In this document: one piece after another, positions 12,463 to 20,465 of the stretch
Numbering within the stretch: position 1 is the first letter of the stretch
How the letters are laid out: each line of letters begins with the position of its first letter
Origin: an uncultured Desulfobulbaceae bacterium
GTDB taxonomy: Bacteria > Desulfobacterota > Desulfobulbia > Desulfobulbales > BM004
Assembly: GCA_945787325.1 (NCBI GenBank)
Contig: CALZHP010000002.1
Coordinates: 51,831-115,830 of the forward strand
Direction: 5' to 3'
Length of the DNA stretch: 64,000 bases
Position numbers and translations under genes: made by a program
Notes under the pieces: model-generated
Database searches by the model: none
Told to the model about the DNA's origin: nothing
What the model saw: only the letters and a program-made list of their open reading frames with translations

Positions 12463-13440
12463 TTACAAAATTTTGTGAAGCTCTTGTAAAACATCATCCA
12501 TGACTTCGGAGCTCAAACGATTTTCAACGCGGAATCCCGCAGCATTTCTATGGCCGCCACCGCCAAATTTTAAAGCAACCTGGGCAACATTATATTGTTT
12601 TTTAGAGCGCATACTCACTGAGATAAAGTTGTTGTCTGCCTCTTTTACAAATAATGCAATTTTCACAGAACCTAAAGCACGTGGAAAATTGATTAAATCT
12701 TCAGTGTCCTCATGGGTGGCTCCTGTTGCAGCAAACATTTCTCGTGTTACTTTAATCGTTGCAATCCGATTATCTGCATGGAGGCTGAGTGTTGCAAGCA
12801 CCTCTTTCATCAACTGCAGTCGCGGTATTGAGTAATTGTCGAAGAGCTTACCGGCGACTTCAGCCGGCTTAACTCCTCTGGCGACCAGTTCTCCTGCAAC
12901 CTGAAAAGTTCTGGCTGAGGTGGAATCATATTTAAAAGATCCAGTGTCAGAGACAATTGCAGTATAAAGGCAAAATGCTGCATCCTCAGAAATATCAACC
13001 CCAAGTGCCTGTGCGAGCTCATAAATCATCTCACCTGTCGATGAGCGTCTTGGCTCAACCCAGCTCTGATCTCCAAACTCTTTATGCCCTTCATGGTGAT
13101 CGATTACCAATACGAGGTGCGTGTCAAGAATCTTTTCCATATTCAGGCCAAGTCGATAACGATCACCGCAGTCTAGAGCAATTGCAGCATCGAAATTGTT
13201 TTCGTCCGGCAGTTGAGTTTCGAGTTTGTCGCACCCTGGCATAAAACTGTAAAGGTGTGATGCTGGCGTTTCACTGTATAAAACAACTTTTTTCCCTAAT
13301 GACTCAAGGATCGATCCTAATGCTAACTGCGACCCCAAAGCGTCTCCGTCGGGAAACACGTGGGTAGCCACCAGAATATGATCGGATTTCTGTATAGTCC
13401 TTATTATGTTTTCAAAGAGCTCAGTCGGCTGTGTCGTCAC
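12463..13440 (-). CDS. nrnA: DHH/DHHA1 phosphoesterase (NrnA-like)
   Basis: THVFPDGDALGS, IDHH, DTGSF, GGGHRNAAG; between rbfA and truB. Confidence 0.9.
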   Translation of the reverse strand: MTTQPTELFENIIRTIQKSDHILVATHVFPDGDALGSQLALGSILESLGKKVVLYSETPASHLYSFMPGCDKLETQLPDENNFDAAIALDCGDRYRLGLNMEKILDTHLVLVIDHHEGHKEFGDQSWVEPRRSSTGEMIYELAQALGVDISEDAAFCLYTAIVSDTGSFKYDSTSARTFQVAGELVARGVKPAEVAGKLFDNYSIPRLQLMKEVLATLSLHADNRIATIKVTREMFAATGATHEDTEDLINFPRALGSVKIALFVKEADNNFISVSMRSKKQYNVAQVALKFGGGGHRNAAGFRVENRLSSEVMDDVLQELHKIL

Positions 13441-13890: not shown

Positions 13891-16626
13891 TTATAGAACT
13901 CCGGCAACTTCGTCCATCAAGAAAGACTCTATAGTGTCTCCAACCTTGATGTCGTTAAAGTTTTCAATTCCAATTCCGCACTCGTACCCGCTTTGAACTT
14001 CCTTGACATCATCTTTAAAGCGCCTGAGGGACCCGATATCACCGGTATAAACAACTACGCCGTCACGAAGGATGCGTGCCTTGGCATTGCGCTCCACCTT
14101 GCCGTCAATAATATAGCACCCGGCAATTGTCCCAATTTTAGGTACCTGGAAAGTATCACGAACTTCTGCAGTGCCGATTACCCTTTCAACATATGTGGGC
14201 TCCAGCATACCTGTCATCGCTTTTTTAATGTCATCAAGAGCATGATAAATTACATCATAGGAGCGGATATCGACCTTTTCTTTTTCAGCAAGCTCCTTAA
14301 CCTTAATGGAAGGCCTAACATTGAAACCGATGATGATAGCCTCAGAAGCAGAAGCGAGAAGAACGTCTGAATCAGTGATTGTGCCAGTCCCTTCGTGCAG
14401 GATGCGTACTTTGATCGCATCTGTGCTGAGCTGCTCTATAGCCTTGCCAAAAGCTTCAAGTGTCCCTTGCACATCTGATCTAAGAATTATTTTAAGCTCC
14501 TTGACTTCTCCTTCCTGCATCTGCTCAAAGAGTTTGTCCAGAGAAATTTTTGTGATCGACGCCAATTCGGTTTCTCTTGCTTTGAGTTGACGTGATGTGC
14601 TGACATTTTTGGCCATTTTTTCATCTGTTACAACGATGAATTCGTCACCTGCGAGGGGAACACCGGAAAGTCCCTGCACTTCAACTGGCATTGCAGGTCC
14701 GGCTTTGTCAACCTGCTCTCCTTTATCGTTTATAAGCGATCGGACTTTTCCGTGATGCTGTCCGACAACGAAGGGTTCGCCCTGGCTTAATGTGCCTTCC
14801 TGAATAAGAATGGTGGCAACAGCACCACGGCCTTTGTGCAGTTGTGCTTCTACTACTCTTCCACGGGCTTTTCGTTTTGGGTCTGATTTAAGCTCAAGTA
14901 CTTCTGCCTGCAGCAGAATGTTGTCCAGTAACTCGTTAATGCCGGTACCCTGCTTGGCTGATGTTTCACAGTATATTGTTTCTCCGCCCCAATCTTCTGG
15001 AACCAAGCCGAGTTCTGCCAGTTCACGTTGCACCCTTGATGGGTCGGAATTAGCTTTGTCAATCTTGTTAACGGCAACTACGATTGGAACACTGGCAGCC
15101 TGGGCATGATTGATGGCCTCTTTTGTTTGATCCATAACGCCATCGTCTGCGGCAACAACCAATACAACAACATCGGTTACCTTGGCACCACGGGAGCGCA
15201 TTTCTGTAAATGCGGCGTGGCCAGGTGTGTCGAGGAATACAACATCGCCAACAGATGATCTGACGTAATAAGCGCCAATGTGCTGCGTTATACCACCGGC
15301 TTCGCCAGTGGCAACATCTGTTTTTCTGATTGCGTCAAGGATAGATGTCTTACCGTGATCAACATGGCCCATTACGGTAACTACCGGAGGTCGTGGAAGA
15401 GGTTCTCCACCAGCCTCCTTTTCCTCGAGTTGCAGAACGTTCAGTTCTTCGGTAGCTCCCTGTTCCACCTCGTATCCAAAATCAGTGGCAACAAGTGTAG
15501 CGGTGTCGATATCAAGAGCCTGGTTGACAGTTGCCATAACGCCGAGACCCATGAGCTTGGCAATAAGCTGATTGGCCCTGACTCCCATACGGTGGGAGAG
15601 ATCTCCGACTGCGATGGTATCATAAACCTTTATTCTTTTTTTGATGGCTTTTGTTTCGGCAGCCACCGGTTCAGCAGCTATCTTTTCTTTTTTCTTGGAG
15701 GGCCGACGACCACCCCTTGGCATACGATCATCGTCACCAATCTGAACAAATCTCTTGCCTTTACGTTTGGGTCCGGCAGCTTTTCTTCCGCGCTCTCTTC
15801 CAACTTCCTCGTCGCTGAACTGTACGAAACGTTTACCTTTCTTTTTACCTTTACCAGCTTTGGCTGGGGTAGTTGGCACATCTTCTTTAGTTGTGTCTAC
15901 TTTTACAGAGACAGATGGGCGTCCTTTTTGCTTAGCCTTTGCAGGCTTGGGTGCTGGTTCTTCAACTGGTATCTGTATCGCAGATTTTTTTATGACTTTG
16001 GCAAGCCCTTTGCGGCGCTGAGGTGCTGCTTTTTTCTTCTTTTCTTTCTCAACTACTTCAGGCTTTTCGGCAACAGCTGGTTCAGTGGTGGCTTCTTCAT
16101 CAAGTTGATCAGCCTCTGTGGTTTCCACAGCAACCTTCTTAGGTTTCAACTCCTTTTCTTCAACTTCAGGAAGTTCTATTGTTTCAGCAAGTTTGTCTGA
16201 CTTTGTCTCTTCAGCTTCAACAACCTTCTCAACTGTTTCAGCTTTTGTTTTTGAGACTTTTTTTCTAGCTTTAACTTTCTTTTTTGACGGTTCTTCAGCA
16301 GGTTCAACGATAGCTTGTTCTTCTTCAACAACAACTTCAGCTGGTTTTTCTTCAGGGGAAGGTGGAGGCGGGGTCTCTGTCTCCTGACGTACGGTTTTTG
16401 AACGTCGGCGAATAACGGTTGTCCTCCCTTTACCGCTTATACGTTTTTCCACAACTTCTGTCTTGGTAGTTCCCAAAACCTTCATGCGGATTTCGTCAGC
16501 CACGTCTTCTTCCAGTGTTGAGCTGTGGCCTTTTATATTGTAGCCCAGGTCAATAAGCTTGTCCGCCAAAGCTTTGCCGGTCAAACCAGCCTCTTTGGCC
16601 AATTCATAAACTCTGATCCTGCTCAT
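13891..16626 (-). CDS. infB: Translation initiation factor IF-2
   Basis: IF2_N domain, charged linker, [18 protein letters not shown]-terminal [12 protein letters not shown]. Confidence 0.99.
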
Positions 16627-16892
16627 TCTATACTCCCACTCCTCTTCAACTCGTCATTCCACTCGCAAACTTTTACGTGCAAAGCCTTTGCAAGTTTCTT
16701 TCTGTTTTTTTTGAAACGTTTGAGGCAGTTATCGTTGTCACAGCAATAAATACCACGACCACCTTTTTGTTGTTTTGCGTCATATACTAAGAGACTGCCC
16801 AATATTATAAACCGTAAGAGATTAATTTTATCTTTCCTGCAATGACATCCGAGACACGTTCTAATATTTACTGCTTTTCTGGCTTTCATCAA
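16623..16892 (-). CDS. ylxR: YlxR/DUF448 family RNA-binding protein
   Basis: RTCLGC...GRGIYCC...C motif; canonical position between nusA and infB. Confidence 0.88.
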
Positions 16893-16944
16893 TGCTATCT
16901 GACAATAATCTAGCTTTGGTCACAAGCATAATTATGACAGTTGT

Positions 16945-18414
16945 TTACAGTTCCAGAACATTTTTTCGGATCTCGTCGGCAACTTCGGCTTTTACAGAGG
17001 AATTATATCCCTTAATATCGTATCCTAATTTAATAAGCTTTTCGGCCAGTTCTTTGCTTTTCATCCCGGCTTCCTTGGCCAGGTCGTAAACTTTAACTTT
17101 TACATCTTTAGCAGCACCTTCTTCCTTCGACTCAACTACTTCCATGTTTTCATCATCAGTTGATTCCGATCTTGGTGCATTTTTTAAATATTCACGGGCA
17201 GATTCAACAAGCTGACTGATAACATCTGGCTCCATATCCAGCAATTCCTGAATCTGCTCTGCAGGTGCCTCAGTAAGGTACTGTGCTGAAGTGATACCGT
17301 TGTCATGGAGGATGTCAGCCTGTTTTTCATCTAAACCAGTAACTGCAAGCAGTGACTTGTATCCATCCTCTTCAAGTTTTGCGTAGCGCTTCTGGCTCTT
17401 GACGTCAATTTTCCAGCCAAGCAGCTTGGATGCAAGTCTGACATTCTGCCCTTGACGACCAATAGCGAGGGAAAGCTGGTCATCCGGGACAACAACCAAC
17501 AGAGATTTTCTGTCTTCATCAACGATAACCATAGATACCTGGGCCGGTGCCATAGCATTTGAGACAAATTTGGCAGGGTCAGGACTCCACGGGACAATGT
17601 CAATTCTTTCCCCCTGAAGTTCCTGGACAACGTTCTGAACACGTGATCCCTTCATCCCGACACAGGCTCCAACAGGATCCACATCTGATTCGCTTGAAGA
17701 AACGGCTATTTTTGCCCGGAATCCAGGTTCCCTGCTTACCCCAAGAATTTTTACAACCCCTTCGGCTATTTCAGGAACTTCCATGTCAAAAAGTTTTGCC
17801 AGGAAATCATTGTGGGTTCTGCTCAATACTAGTTGGTGGTCCCTTGTGCTCTGACGGACTTCCAAGAGGTAAGCCCTGATACGGTCTCCTTGACGGTAAG
17901 ATCTTTTCGGTATCTGTTCAGAGTGAGGAAGTATAGCATCTGTACGTCCGAGGTTTATTATCATGTTTCCCCGTTCAAATCTCTGTACAATGCCGTTAAT
18001 TATTTCACCTTTACGGTCTTTATACATTTCATAAATAACATCAAGCTCGGCATCCTTCATTTTCTGAATGATAACCTGCTTGGCTGATTGAGCGGCAATT
18101 CTTCCCAATTCAGCGATGTTTTCCATTTTAGCACCCAGTTCATCATCGATTTTGACTTCCGGGTCGAGAACCAGGGCCTCTTTTAGGGAGACCTCAGTCT
18201 GTTCATCTTCAACCTTGTCTACAACGATACGGAACTGGAAAACTTCAACTTCACCAAGATCATCGTTGTACTGGACTTCGATGTCACGCCTGCTGCCATA
18301 TCTTTTTCTTGCAGCAGAGCGTACTGCCTCTTCTATAGCTTCGATAAGCAGGTTTCTTTCAATCCCCTTATCTCTACTGATTTGATCAATGATTCTTTTT
18401 AAGTCCGTAAGCAT
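16945..18414 (-). CDS. nusA: Transcription factor NusA with a C-terminal IF2_N-like domain
   Basis: GRIAAQSAKQVI, S1, KH (DPVGACVG, SLAIGRQGQNVRLA), HhH-like region, then a tail 29/46 identical to the IF2 N-terminus. Confidence 0.98.
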   Translation of the reverse strand: MLTDLKRIIDQISRDKGIERNLLIEAIEEAVRSAARKRYGSRRDIEVQYNDDLGEVEVFQFRIVVDKVEDEQTEVSLKEALVLDPEVKIDDELGAKMENIAELGRIAAQSAKQVIIQKMKDAELDVIYEMYKDRKGEIINGIVQRFERGNMIINLGRTDAILPHSEQIPKRSYRQGDRIRAYLLEVRQSTRDHQLVLSRTHNDFLAKLFDMEVPEIAEGVVKILGVSREPGFRAKIAVSSSESDVDPVGACVGMKGSRVQNVVQELQGERIDIVPWSPDPAKFVSNAMAPAQVSMVIVDEDRKSLLVVVPDDQLSLAIGRQGQNVRLASKLLGWKIDVKSQKRYAKLEEDGYKSLLAVTGLDEKQADILHDNGITSAQYLTEAPAEQIQELLDMEPDVISQLVESAREYLKNAPRSESTDDENMEVVESKEEGAAKDVKVKVYDLAKEAGMKSKELAEKLIKLGYDIKGYNSSVKAEVADEIRKNVLEL

Positions 18415-18677: not shown

Positions 18678-19127
18678 TTATAACTCTACTTCCAATCGGG
18701 CTTTTTCTATAATGTCAAAAGGGATTTCAATGACCTCATGCCCGGTTTTCATAAAAACTGTATGATTTTCGTATTTTAAAATTGTACCTGTAAATGCCTG
18801 CATATTGTTAACAGGCAATTTTGTTTTTAATTTAGCCTTGCGCCCTGCAAAGCGAACATAATCTTGTTCCTTATGTAGAGGACGGTCAAGACCAGGTGAC
18901 GACACTTCCAGCCGGTATGCATGATCAATAAGATCTTCTACGTCGAGAAGATGGCTAATTTCTCTACTGACTTCGCTGCAGTCATCGAGTGTGACACCAC
19001 CTCCCTTGTCTATTATCAGCCTCAGCACCCAGCCGGACCCTTCTCGCCGGTATTGGGTGTCAACCAGCTCAATATCCTGTTCGTCAAGTACCGGCGTTAT
19101 CAGCAATTTAATTTCATCAATCAGCAT
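18678..19127 (-). CDS. rimP: Ribosome maturation factor RimP
   Basis: VTLDDCSEVS, YRLEVSSPGLDRPL; start placed at ATG 19127, downstream of the leader hairpin. Confidence 0.95.
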   Translation of the reverse strand: MLIDEIKLLITPVLDEQDIELVDTQYRREGSGWVLRLIIDKGGGVTLDDCSEVSREISHLLDVEDLIDHAYRLEVSSPGLDRPLHKEQDYVRFAGRKAKLKTKLPVNNMQAFTGTILKYENHTVFMKTGHEVIEIPFDIIEKARLEVEL

Positions 19128-19166
19128 TTGTTGAACGGGTTTGCAAAAAACTTGTTCCCTTAAAAT

Positions 19167-19194
19167 AAAAAAAAGCGGGCAAAGCCCACTTCCC
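19167..19194 (-). promoter_or_regulatory. rimP leader (short attenuator-like terminator hairpin)
   Basis: Minus strand GGGAAGTGGGC-TTT-GCCCGC-TTTTTTTT about 40 nt before rimP; matches the widely conserved GGGC...GCCC rimP-leader pattern. Confidence 0.8.
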
Positions 19195-19379
19195 AATTCC
19201 AGTACAGGCATATTGAAAAAGCGCCCATACCATATCCTGCCTTACTCATAACGGCAAGAAAAATATCTTCCCGACGGGGCGCAACCAAAGTGAATTTAGT
19301 TTATCCCCGTTGTCTTTTCAACGAGTAAGATAAACCTAATTACTACTCAATACAGCAAACTTGTTGCCGAGTTTTAAGT

Positions 19380-19680: not shown

Positions 19681-20175
19681 CTATGAATTGGATGAAGCTG
19701 CATCAAGAGCCAAGTTAACAGCATCGACGGCATTTTTCGCTATTAGAATGTCGTTTTCAACAGTCATCCCTTTCCGTGAAAGGTTCCACGAATCGAATAG
19801 AATAATGGGGCATCTGCATTTTAAAGCAAGTGCAATTTCAGATAGTGTGCCGTATTCGCCGCCAATGGCAATAGCCGCATTACAACTTTTAACGTTTAAA
19901 ACATTACGTGCTTCACCCATTCCAGTGTATATTGCAATATCCACATAACTGTTAGGAGCGCTTGTTGTCCTGTCGCCTGGAAGTATGCCCACAGTGAGGC
20001 CTTTCCCACTTTTTGCACCCGCACTTGCCGCCAACATTACGCCTCCCAGTCCACCGGTGAGGACAACGACACCGTGTTCTGCAAGCAGTCGCCCTGTCTC
20101 ATGAGCAGCCTGCCACTCTCCAGACCCCTTAGTGACATTTCCACCACCAAAAATGCCGATAACCAACTTTCCCAT
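19681..20175 (-). CDS. TIGR00725-like LOG/SLOG family protein
   Basis: LTGGLGGVM, TVGILPG, TGMGEARN, IGGEYGTLSEIALA; start MGKLV after GGAG. Confidence 0.88.
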   Translation of the reverse strand: MGKLVIGIFGGGNVTKGSGEWQAAHETGRLLAEHGVVVLTGGLGGVMLAASAGAKSGKGLTVGILPGDRTTSAPNSYVDIAIYTGMGEARNVLNVKSCNAAIAIGGEYGTLSEIALALKCRCPIILFDSWNLSRKGMTVENDILIAKNAVDAVNLALDAASSNS

Positions 20176-20465
20176 ATCATCATGTCTCCAGAATTTAATT
20201 ATTGTCAGTCTTAACAATTTCACACATGATATCTCCTTTGTGAAAAAAATAACTTGTTGTTAGCGTCTTAATGTCTTTGATGAATTTTTTCAAACCCTTC
20301 AGAATTCGAAATAATGATGAAGATCGAGGTGATATGGAAATGACACTTGAGCAAATGGCGTCATTGTGTTAACGAAATATTCTGATTAATGGTTATGTCC
20401 AGTTACGTTAAGCAGAGGATCATTTTTTAAGTTGTTTAAAATAGTTAAGTTCCAGGGAAACTGCG

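Follow-up and report, generated by a model that had tools for sequence, protein, structure and literature searches.

In E. coli, the distal N1 sub-domain of IF2-alpha Domain I binds to the C-terminal part of NusA, an interaction that the section of the study drawn on here bases on pull-down, on photo-crosslinks at residues 13, 50 and 88 and on the loss of binding in NusA-deltaC (Metelev and Johansson, 2025; PMC12297416). The N1 site itself, at KH2/AR1 of NusA, comes from an AlphaFold 3 model, and two beta strands that follow N1 (residues 57-90) contribute to the modelled interface. In the same section the authors propose early transcription-translation coupling, note that both interacting termini, that of IF2 and that of NusA, are poorly conserved, and describe an autoinhibition of E. 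coli NusA through AR2 and KH1 (PMC12297416). It was only in 2025, and in E. coli, that IF2 and NusA were found to be physically linked, and that section, with the poor conservation of the termini in mind, left the presence of the link elsewhere open. A second copy of the IF2_N fold, the G-proximal N2 sub-domain, behaves differently: in the part of the P. aeruginosa work used here, N2 anchors IF2 on helix h16 of the 16S rRNA via S277, V278, K279, R259 and a basic extension that, with R259, wraps the h16 minor groove, while the N/G1 domain of Thermus is said to be like N1 in sequence and like N2 in structure (PMC9192638).

[quoted passage not shown] However, in E. coli the domain belongs to IF2 and binds in trans, whereas here a second copy, known from sequence and models, is covalently attached to NusA. 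In E. coli-type NusA, an N-terminal domain, S1, KH1 and KH2 precede a first AR-type HhH domain, and the window NusA follows the same order, with a putative AR-type domain after KH2; both then end in a small C-terminal domain on a flexible connection at the AR2 position. In E. coli this domain is AR2, an HhH domain that binds the C-terminal domain of the polymerase alpha subunit and autoinhibits KH1, but it is replaced here by the unrelated IF2_N fold. The relevant features, in window coordinates, are:

18678-19211, minus strand: rimP, the first gene of the cluster (Pfam RimP_N and DUF150_C)
16945-18414, minus strand: nusA, open reading frame of 489 aa plus stop (Pfam NusA_N 4-123, S1 132-191, KH_5/KH 230-342)
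17176-17382, minus strand: putative single acidic-repeat (HhH)-type domain, NusA 345-413, five helices, pLDDT about 80 (AlphaFold)
17107-17175, minus strand: disordered acidic linker, NusA 414-436, pLDDT below 50, with 8 acidic and 3 basic residues
16948-17106, minus strand: IF2_N (N1-type) tail, NusA 437-489 (Pfam match 439-484, that is 16963-17100)
16948-17091, minus strand: the span given to the tail by the first-pass annotation, NusA residues 442-489
16623-16892, minus strand: ylxR (DUF448), between nusA and infB (Pfam YlxR, 51.6 bits)
13891-16626, minus strand: infB, encoding IF2 of 911 aa (Pfam IF2_N twice, GTP_EFTU, EF-G_D2, IF-2, GTP_EFTU_D2)
16471-16617, minus strand: N1 domain of IF2 (residues 4-52), paralogue of the NusA tail (Pfam match about 6-51)
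15469-15618, minus strand: second, G-proximal IF2_N copy of IF2 (residues 337-386, N2-type; Pfam best stretch 337-386)

The window nusA sits in the conserved rimP-nusA-ylxR-infB-rbfA cluster, as is the case for bacterial NusA, with infB two genes downstream and rbfA, a DHH/DHHA1 gene, truB, rpsO and pnp following infB. By Pfam its product is a bacterial NusA, with NusA_N, S1 and two KH domains in order, and the solved structures closest to it are bacterial NusA chains (E 1e-92 to 1e-81). The protein is co-linear with residues 6-474 of E. coli NusA, its AR-like domain aligning with the AR1 region and its tail occupying the AR2 position. The first-pass annotation, a reading of the sequence without database searches, had stated that E. 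coli-type NusA carries acidic repeats in place of the module seen here, and the alignment agrees, since it is the second acidic repeat that lies where the tail sits. Indeed, the C-terminal domain of the window NusA is an IF2_N domain and not HhH, and AR2 is absent. The AR-like domain itself gave no HHH_5 match at E<=0.01, while many relatives carry a precomputed PF14520 HHH_5 label.

The NusA tail is a folded IF2_N domain of the N1 type. Pfam IF2_N matches NusA 439-484 with 37.5 bits against a cut-off of 25.3. In a scan of the genome this stretch reaches 40.8 bits; apart from it, just the two copies in infB exceed the cut-off, which makes three in all. The tail is read in frame with nusA, and the domain stops two to three residues before the nusA stop codon. 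The AlphaFold model of full-length NusA, built on 90 sequences, is of moderate quality overall (pLDDT 66.8), with values of about 80 for residues 345-412, below 50 for 414-436 and about 81-83 for a compact tail. When the tail was modelled alone, on an alignment of 46 tails and N1 domains, pLDDT rose to 90.4, and the elements run in the order strand-helix-helix-strand-helix. In both sequence and fold, the best solved match to the tail is the N (N/G1) domain of Thermus thermophilus IF2 (PDB 4B3X, 4B44, 4B47, 4KJZ), onto which Foldseek superposes the tail-only model with a TM of 0.80-0.81 and an rmsd of 1.6-1.7 A at 39-40% identity (probability 1.00). Identification of the tail as IF2_N, as proposed in the first-pass annotation, is thus borne out by HMM scan and fold alike. 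A sequence search with the tail also matches Thermus IF2, and a profile of tails and N1 domains matches the Thermus IF2 N domain at E 1.5e-14; against the solved IF2 chains, the same profile gave no E. coli or P. aeruginosa IF2 match at E<=10. The tail-only model superposes on the P. aeruginosa N2 sub-domain bound to h16 (7UIU) with a TM of 0.78, and poorly on the E. coli N1 NMR model 1ND9 (TM 0.42). Lower Foldseek matches are MerR/excisionase-type DNA-binding domains. In Thermus IF2 the N domain is the sole one and is connected by a long helix to the G domain, near the 30S subunit, whereas the NusA tail hangs on a disordered acidic linker.

Within the same genome, the closest counterpart of the tail is the N1 domain of IF2. 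The reported ungapped alignment of NusA 442-487 with IF2 6-51, at 29 of 46 identical residues, proved exact: it starts after the acidic linker, ends two residues before the stop, and the runner-up 46-residue window of IF2 reaches only 9 identities. BLASTP extends the pair to 49 columns (29/49 identical, 42/49 positives, E 1e-20). At the nucleotide level the two stretches agree at 92 of 138 positions (66.7%), with a longest identical run of 9 bases, and the codons of the 29 identical residues are the same in 10 cases and different in 19. These values rule out a recent duplication of the tail and N1, and likewise recent gene conversion between them; moreover, the tail and N1 of the same genome never pair in the domain tree described below. 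The view in the first-pass annotation that this is neither a recent duplication nor an assembly repeat therefore stands, and the 105 database relatives considered below, all of which carry the domain, add to it. The tail keeps those residues that hardly vary among the N1 domains of the order, and R4, K10, E11, K31 and R46 of alignment A2, which are charged and probably exposed, are kept in both tails and N1 domains, a pattern that fits a retained binding surface as far as the sequences suggest. At other positions the tails differ consistently from the N1 domains of the family, for example with Tyr for His and Lys for Ala, and a conserved basic segment that follows N1 in IF2 is missing from the NusA tail. 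The second IF2_N copy of the window IF2 aligns with residues 304-367 of E. coli IF2 and 256-318 of P. aeruginosa IF2, the h16-binding N2 sub-domain.

It is conceivable that the tail is a neutral leftover of a local duplication, or that mis-assembly joined nusA to the start of infB. Such a reading could point to the three genera of the family in which the tail is missing, and to one genome (G124, genus g2) with a scrambled contig end at the tail, where the tail is inverted and carries a stop codon. The inverted tail of G124 is an assembly artefact. In the window, however, nusA is followed by ylxR and then by a complete infB with its own N1, and different codons are used at 19 of the 29 residues shared with that N1. 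A search of 5.8 billion proteins with NusA 345-489 returned 105 matches among 1483 candidates, and all 105 combine NusA domains with PF04760, in every case at the extreme C-terminus; where the source is named, they are NusA proteins from metagenome-assembled genomes of uncultured Desulfobulbales, Desulfobulbaceae or Desulfobacterales. Among public reads and contigs, the stretch 16500-17500 was represented in two runs only, with word shares of 0.12 and 0.07, and no RNA run was listed for it; the pieces recovered come from conserved parts of relatives only and leave 16900-17200 uncovered. The junction is supported not by reads but by the 105 independent database proteins, drawn from many assemblies and all with the tail intact.

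Selection on the tail argues in the same direction. Pairwise Nei-Gojobori comparison of 13 nusA genes from genomes of the window's family gave a dN/dS of 0.03 in the core (residues 1-344), 0.14 in the AR domain and 0.10 in the tail, against 0.54 in the linker; with dS at 1.0-1.4, near saturation, these ratios are rough, but the contrast between linker and tail is nonetheless clear. Across the 13 genomes the linker varies in sequence and is similar in length. The tail is under purifying selection, and the linker much less so. The first-pass annotation had held that a tail missing from relatives and evolving neutrally would speak against a functional fusion; the tail is indeed absent from three genera of the family, yet where it is present its dN/dS is far from neutral. 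With the confident fold of the tail-only model added, a neutral remnant or an assembly error is exceedingly improbable, and we are all but certain of a real, selected domain fusion of single origin.

How widespread is this architecture? In the window's family, nusA was found in 18 of the 19 genomes and the tail in 13 of these 18, which belong to genus g1 (that of the window), to g2 (11 genomes) and to g6. In the tail-less NusA proteins of g3 (two genomes), g4 (one) and g5 (one), the AR domain is followed by an acidic stretch with which the protein ends. Genomes of the order (121) and of the phylum (401) were scanned with Pfam IF2_N, the window genome being counted in both sets. In the order, G106 and eight genomes of family f1, that of the window, were the only ones with a third IF2_N copy; in the phylum, the window genome, G311 and G473 alone had one. 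The third copies of G106, G311 and G473 were rejected as NusA fusions, as they lie in non-NusA frames of 812, 191 and 317 aa, respectively. At 20 nusA-infB loci from 13 other families of the order, NusA ends in acidic or low-complexity sequence with no IF2_N. Among 80 listed loci from species-representative genomes of many phyla, the NusA core was found in 77 frames and IF2_N together with it in three, all three with tails of the genus-g2 type; the 74 further nusA loci of this set showed no IF2_N in a scan that is biased to N1-like patterns. When the tail alone served as query of a word-based search, the same clade and fragments of IF2 came back, and for NusA 340-489 the ESM Atlas gave HhH clusters alone, whose value of 0.77 is too low to count as a lead. 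Among the genomes sampled, the survey of NusA architectures that had been proposed along with the first reading places the fusion in one family of uncultured sulfate-reducer-type bacteria, in three of its genera only, which is not to say that it is absent elsewhere.

The origin of the tail was addressed with a tree of IF2_N domains from nusA and infB (113 rows, 48 columns; quick IQ-TREE run, with SH-aLRT supports only), likewise suggested at the outset. It places 78 of the 79 tails in one clade (SH-aLRT 95), apart from N1, with the long-branched g6 tail just outside and unresolved. The 14 N1 domains of the family, those of tail-less genera included, form a separate clade (91), and tails, family N1 domains and the N1 of family f17 group together with a support of 91. 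The second, N2-type IF2_N of the window IF2 is far from the tail (branch length 5.35). With the tails in a single clade next to the N1 domains that IF2 has in this family, the tree fits one old duplication of N1 that dates to the base of the family or close to it. It also fits that the N1 copy was appended to an acidic C-terminal tail which NusA already possessed throughout the order, this acidic tail having become the flexible linker of about 23 residues. A tree of the NusA core leaves the genera of the family unresolved, with the window core closest to that of the tail-less genus g5 (87%). Given this proximity to a tail-less genus and the single tail clade, we lean towards loss of the tail in some genera as likelier than several gains.

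Thus, the fusion is genuine, selected and lineage-restricted, and a candidate mechanism for it rests on analogy with E. coli. NusA, riding on RNA polymerase, would carry a tethered copy of the N1 handle by which E. coli IF2 docks. The tail could then be a built-in mimic of this handle that folds back on the N1 docking site of NusA (KH2/AR1), or competes for it, and would thereby set the ease with which IF2, and with it the 30S subunit, is recruited to the transcribing polymerase. Such a fold-back would parallel the autoinhibition of E. coli NusA by AR2. That the tail acts as a cis mimic or competitor of IF2 N1 at the NusA docking site is the reading we tentatively prefer, because the tail is an N1 paralogue, keeps the nearly invariant N1 residues and sits on a flexible tether beside the AR domain, next to which the disordered linker holds it in the model. 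More speculatively still, and with some doubt on our part, the tail may be a natural tethered competitor of N1 that occupies the NusA site until NusA is engaged on a transcribing polymerase or the tail is displaced, gating early transcription-translation coupling; the fusion would then amount to 'Rosetta stone' evidence of an old IF2-NusA link in a distant phylum.

Several observations weigh against a cis mimic. In sequence, the N1 type of this order is much nearer to the N domain of Thermus than to N1 of E. coli, and as the profile finds no E. coli IF2 chain and the E. coli N1 model superposes poorly, it is uncertain whether the E. coli interaction can be transferred. The tail is also without the beta-strand extension that follows N1 in the E. 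coli interface. By eye, the AR domain of the window NusA resembles that of a tail-less genus more than that of another tail-bearing genus, so that no co-adaptation of AR domain and tail is visible, and the tail must be dispensable, as three genera of the family lack it. That the two genes are neighbours could by itself account for a fusion of nusA with IF2_N. Complex modelling of NusA 200-413 with the tail (437-489), both from alignment A1, speaks neither for nor against binding: the two runs, made without controls, each scored 0.00.

An alternative, in line with the first-pass annotation, is binding of the tail to the shoulder of the 30S subunit or to helix h16 of nascent 16S rRNA, as the G-proximal IF2_N does, such that NusA on the polymerase would hold a 30S subunit or aid co-transcriptional folding of 16S rRNA in the rRNA antitermination complex. 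NusA is an RNA-binding protein and a member of the rrn antitermination complex, which counts for a 30S anchor, as does the Thermus N/G1 domain being the closest solved relative of the tail. The part of the P. aeruginosa study used here equates that Thermus domain with the 30S-contacting region (PMC9192638), and the N2 sub-domain of 7UIU has the same fold as the tail and superposes on it; with the register set by a shared D-L motif, G450-M451-K452 of the tail align with the h16-contacting S277-V278-K279, K452 thus falling on a contact residue. Lys452 is kept in at least 90% of the 90 NusA sequences, while N1 domains vary at this position, but Glu takes its place in the g6 tail and in the Thermus domain. 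The surroundings of the domain differ as well: the basic extension with R259 that wraps h16 in N2 has its place taken in NusA by the acidic linker, NusA ends right after the domain with no extension following it, and the window tail has a net charge, by count, of about +2, compared with about -2 for the tail type common in g2. Moreover, N2-type sequences, including the true N2-type copy of the window IF2, are distant from the tail. The first-pass annotation had associated IF2_N with ribosome and RNA contact; this part of the claim holds for N2, which binds h16 (according to the section of PMC9192638 cited), but is incomplete, as the distal N1 of E. coli binds NusA itself (according to that of PMC12297416). 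We consider a 30S or 16S anchor, the main rival of the cis mimic, unlikely though worth keeping in view.

The partner of the tail need not be NusA or the ribosome at all, since N1-type IF2_N also occurs in unrelated architectures. It may be a portable docking module which, on NusA, recruits another protein or a nucleic acid, or links NusA molecules in trans, its likeness to IF2 reflecting only the origin of the DNA. A profile search of 1.84 billion representatives gave 8404 matches at E<=0.001, and 10 of the best 150 of these, in which a domain copy lies away from the N-terminus, were examined by Pfam; they include two Ser/Thr kinases, a caspase-like peptidase, a KH protein, a cold-shock-domain protein and two tandem arrays. 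In the same order as the window, one protein combines IF2_N with an AAA_5 ATPase domain. The DNA-binding domains among the lower Foldseek matches would suit a different partner too, as would the set positions at which tails are consistently unlike the family N1 domains. However, the analysis brought up no candidate partner, and the nearly invariant residues common to tails and N1 domains suggest that the ancestral surface was kept, so that recruitment of some other partner strikes us as improbable, if not strongly so.

No description of a NusA-IF2_N fusion was found in the literature searched, supplements lying outside the search, in keeping with the first-pass annotation, which named no earlier description; the architecture can be read from the precomputed Pfam labels that at least 105 database proteins carry. 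A 2026 preprint on IF2 extensions reports the correlation of NusA C-terminal length with IF2 N-terminal length (r = -0.18), and its passages on NusA leave the fusion unmentioned (10.64898/2026.02.08.704698). A distant lineage that keeps a copy of the IF2 handle on NusA under selection gives an independent hint, at the level of genomes, of a joint role for this domain and NusA, and the fusion may tune the start of translation on RNA that is still being made. It also makes the IF2-NusA link testable in a second lineage, with NusA carrying or lacking the tail and with the tail set in competition against IF2 N1. Should its partner be the 30S subunit, the tail would instead form a direct, NusA-borne bridge between polymerase and ribosome. 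Either way, the fusion adds a case to a pattern in which unrelated proteins borrow the IF2_N module. Among the best 150 of the 8404 profile matches, most of those other than the 10 examined start at residue 1, like IF2 fragments.

The N1-type IF2_N domain, the form found at the distal N-terminus of IF2 and present in paralogous copy at the C-terminus of the window NusA, looks like a widely reused module. Outside IF2 it is carried by two Ser/Thr kinases, by a caspase-like peptidase that also has a CarboxypepD_reg domain, by a KH protein 1364 aa long and by a cold-shock-domain protein, and some non-IF2 proteins carry tandem arrays of three to four IF2_N copies each. Among the 10 proteins examined with Pfam, drawn from the best 150 of 8404 profile matches, the domain lies outside IF2 in P0122, P0123, P0124, P0127, P0134, P0205 and P0206. 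In G106, a genome from another family of the same order, an N-terminal N1-type IF2_N (48 bits) is followed by an AAA_5 (dynein-related) ATPase domain (contig C62, L029:1-1710:-), and the protein is an open frame of 812 aa in the genome. In G473, a genome of the same phylum, a protein of 317 aa (L034:733-1683:+) combines a DUF4405 membrane domain with a partial IF2_N match (29.2 bits) at its C-terminus.

In IF2 of the window's order, a conserved Arg/Lys-rich basic segment directly follows N1 (window 13891-16626, minus strand; IF2 starts in loci L005-L054). This segment, which may be the counterpart of the strand segment after N1 in E. coli, was not inherited by the NusA tail.

Two further genes accompany the cluster in the window:

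12463-13440, minus strand, DHH/DHHA1 (NrnA-like) gene, flanked in the cluster by rbfA and truB
19681-20223, minus strand, SLOG cluster4 (LDcluster4) family gene, a short way upstream of rimP

The nusA tail of G124, from genus g2 of the window's family, is present but inverted, and a TAA interrupts it (L018 / L023). It lies within the first 200 bases of contig C2, at the contig's extreme end; this is a fold-back assembly artefact, not to be taken for a broken gene. The NusA of G013 (family f13; L045:493-1965:+) ends in a Lys/Leu-rich helical stretch of ~35 residues instead of an acidic tail; this stretch is without a Pfam match and may be a further lineage-specific C-terminal module.
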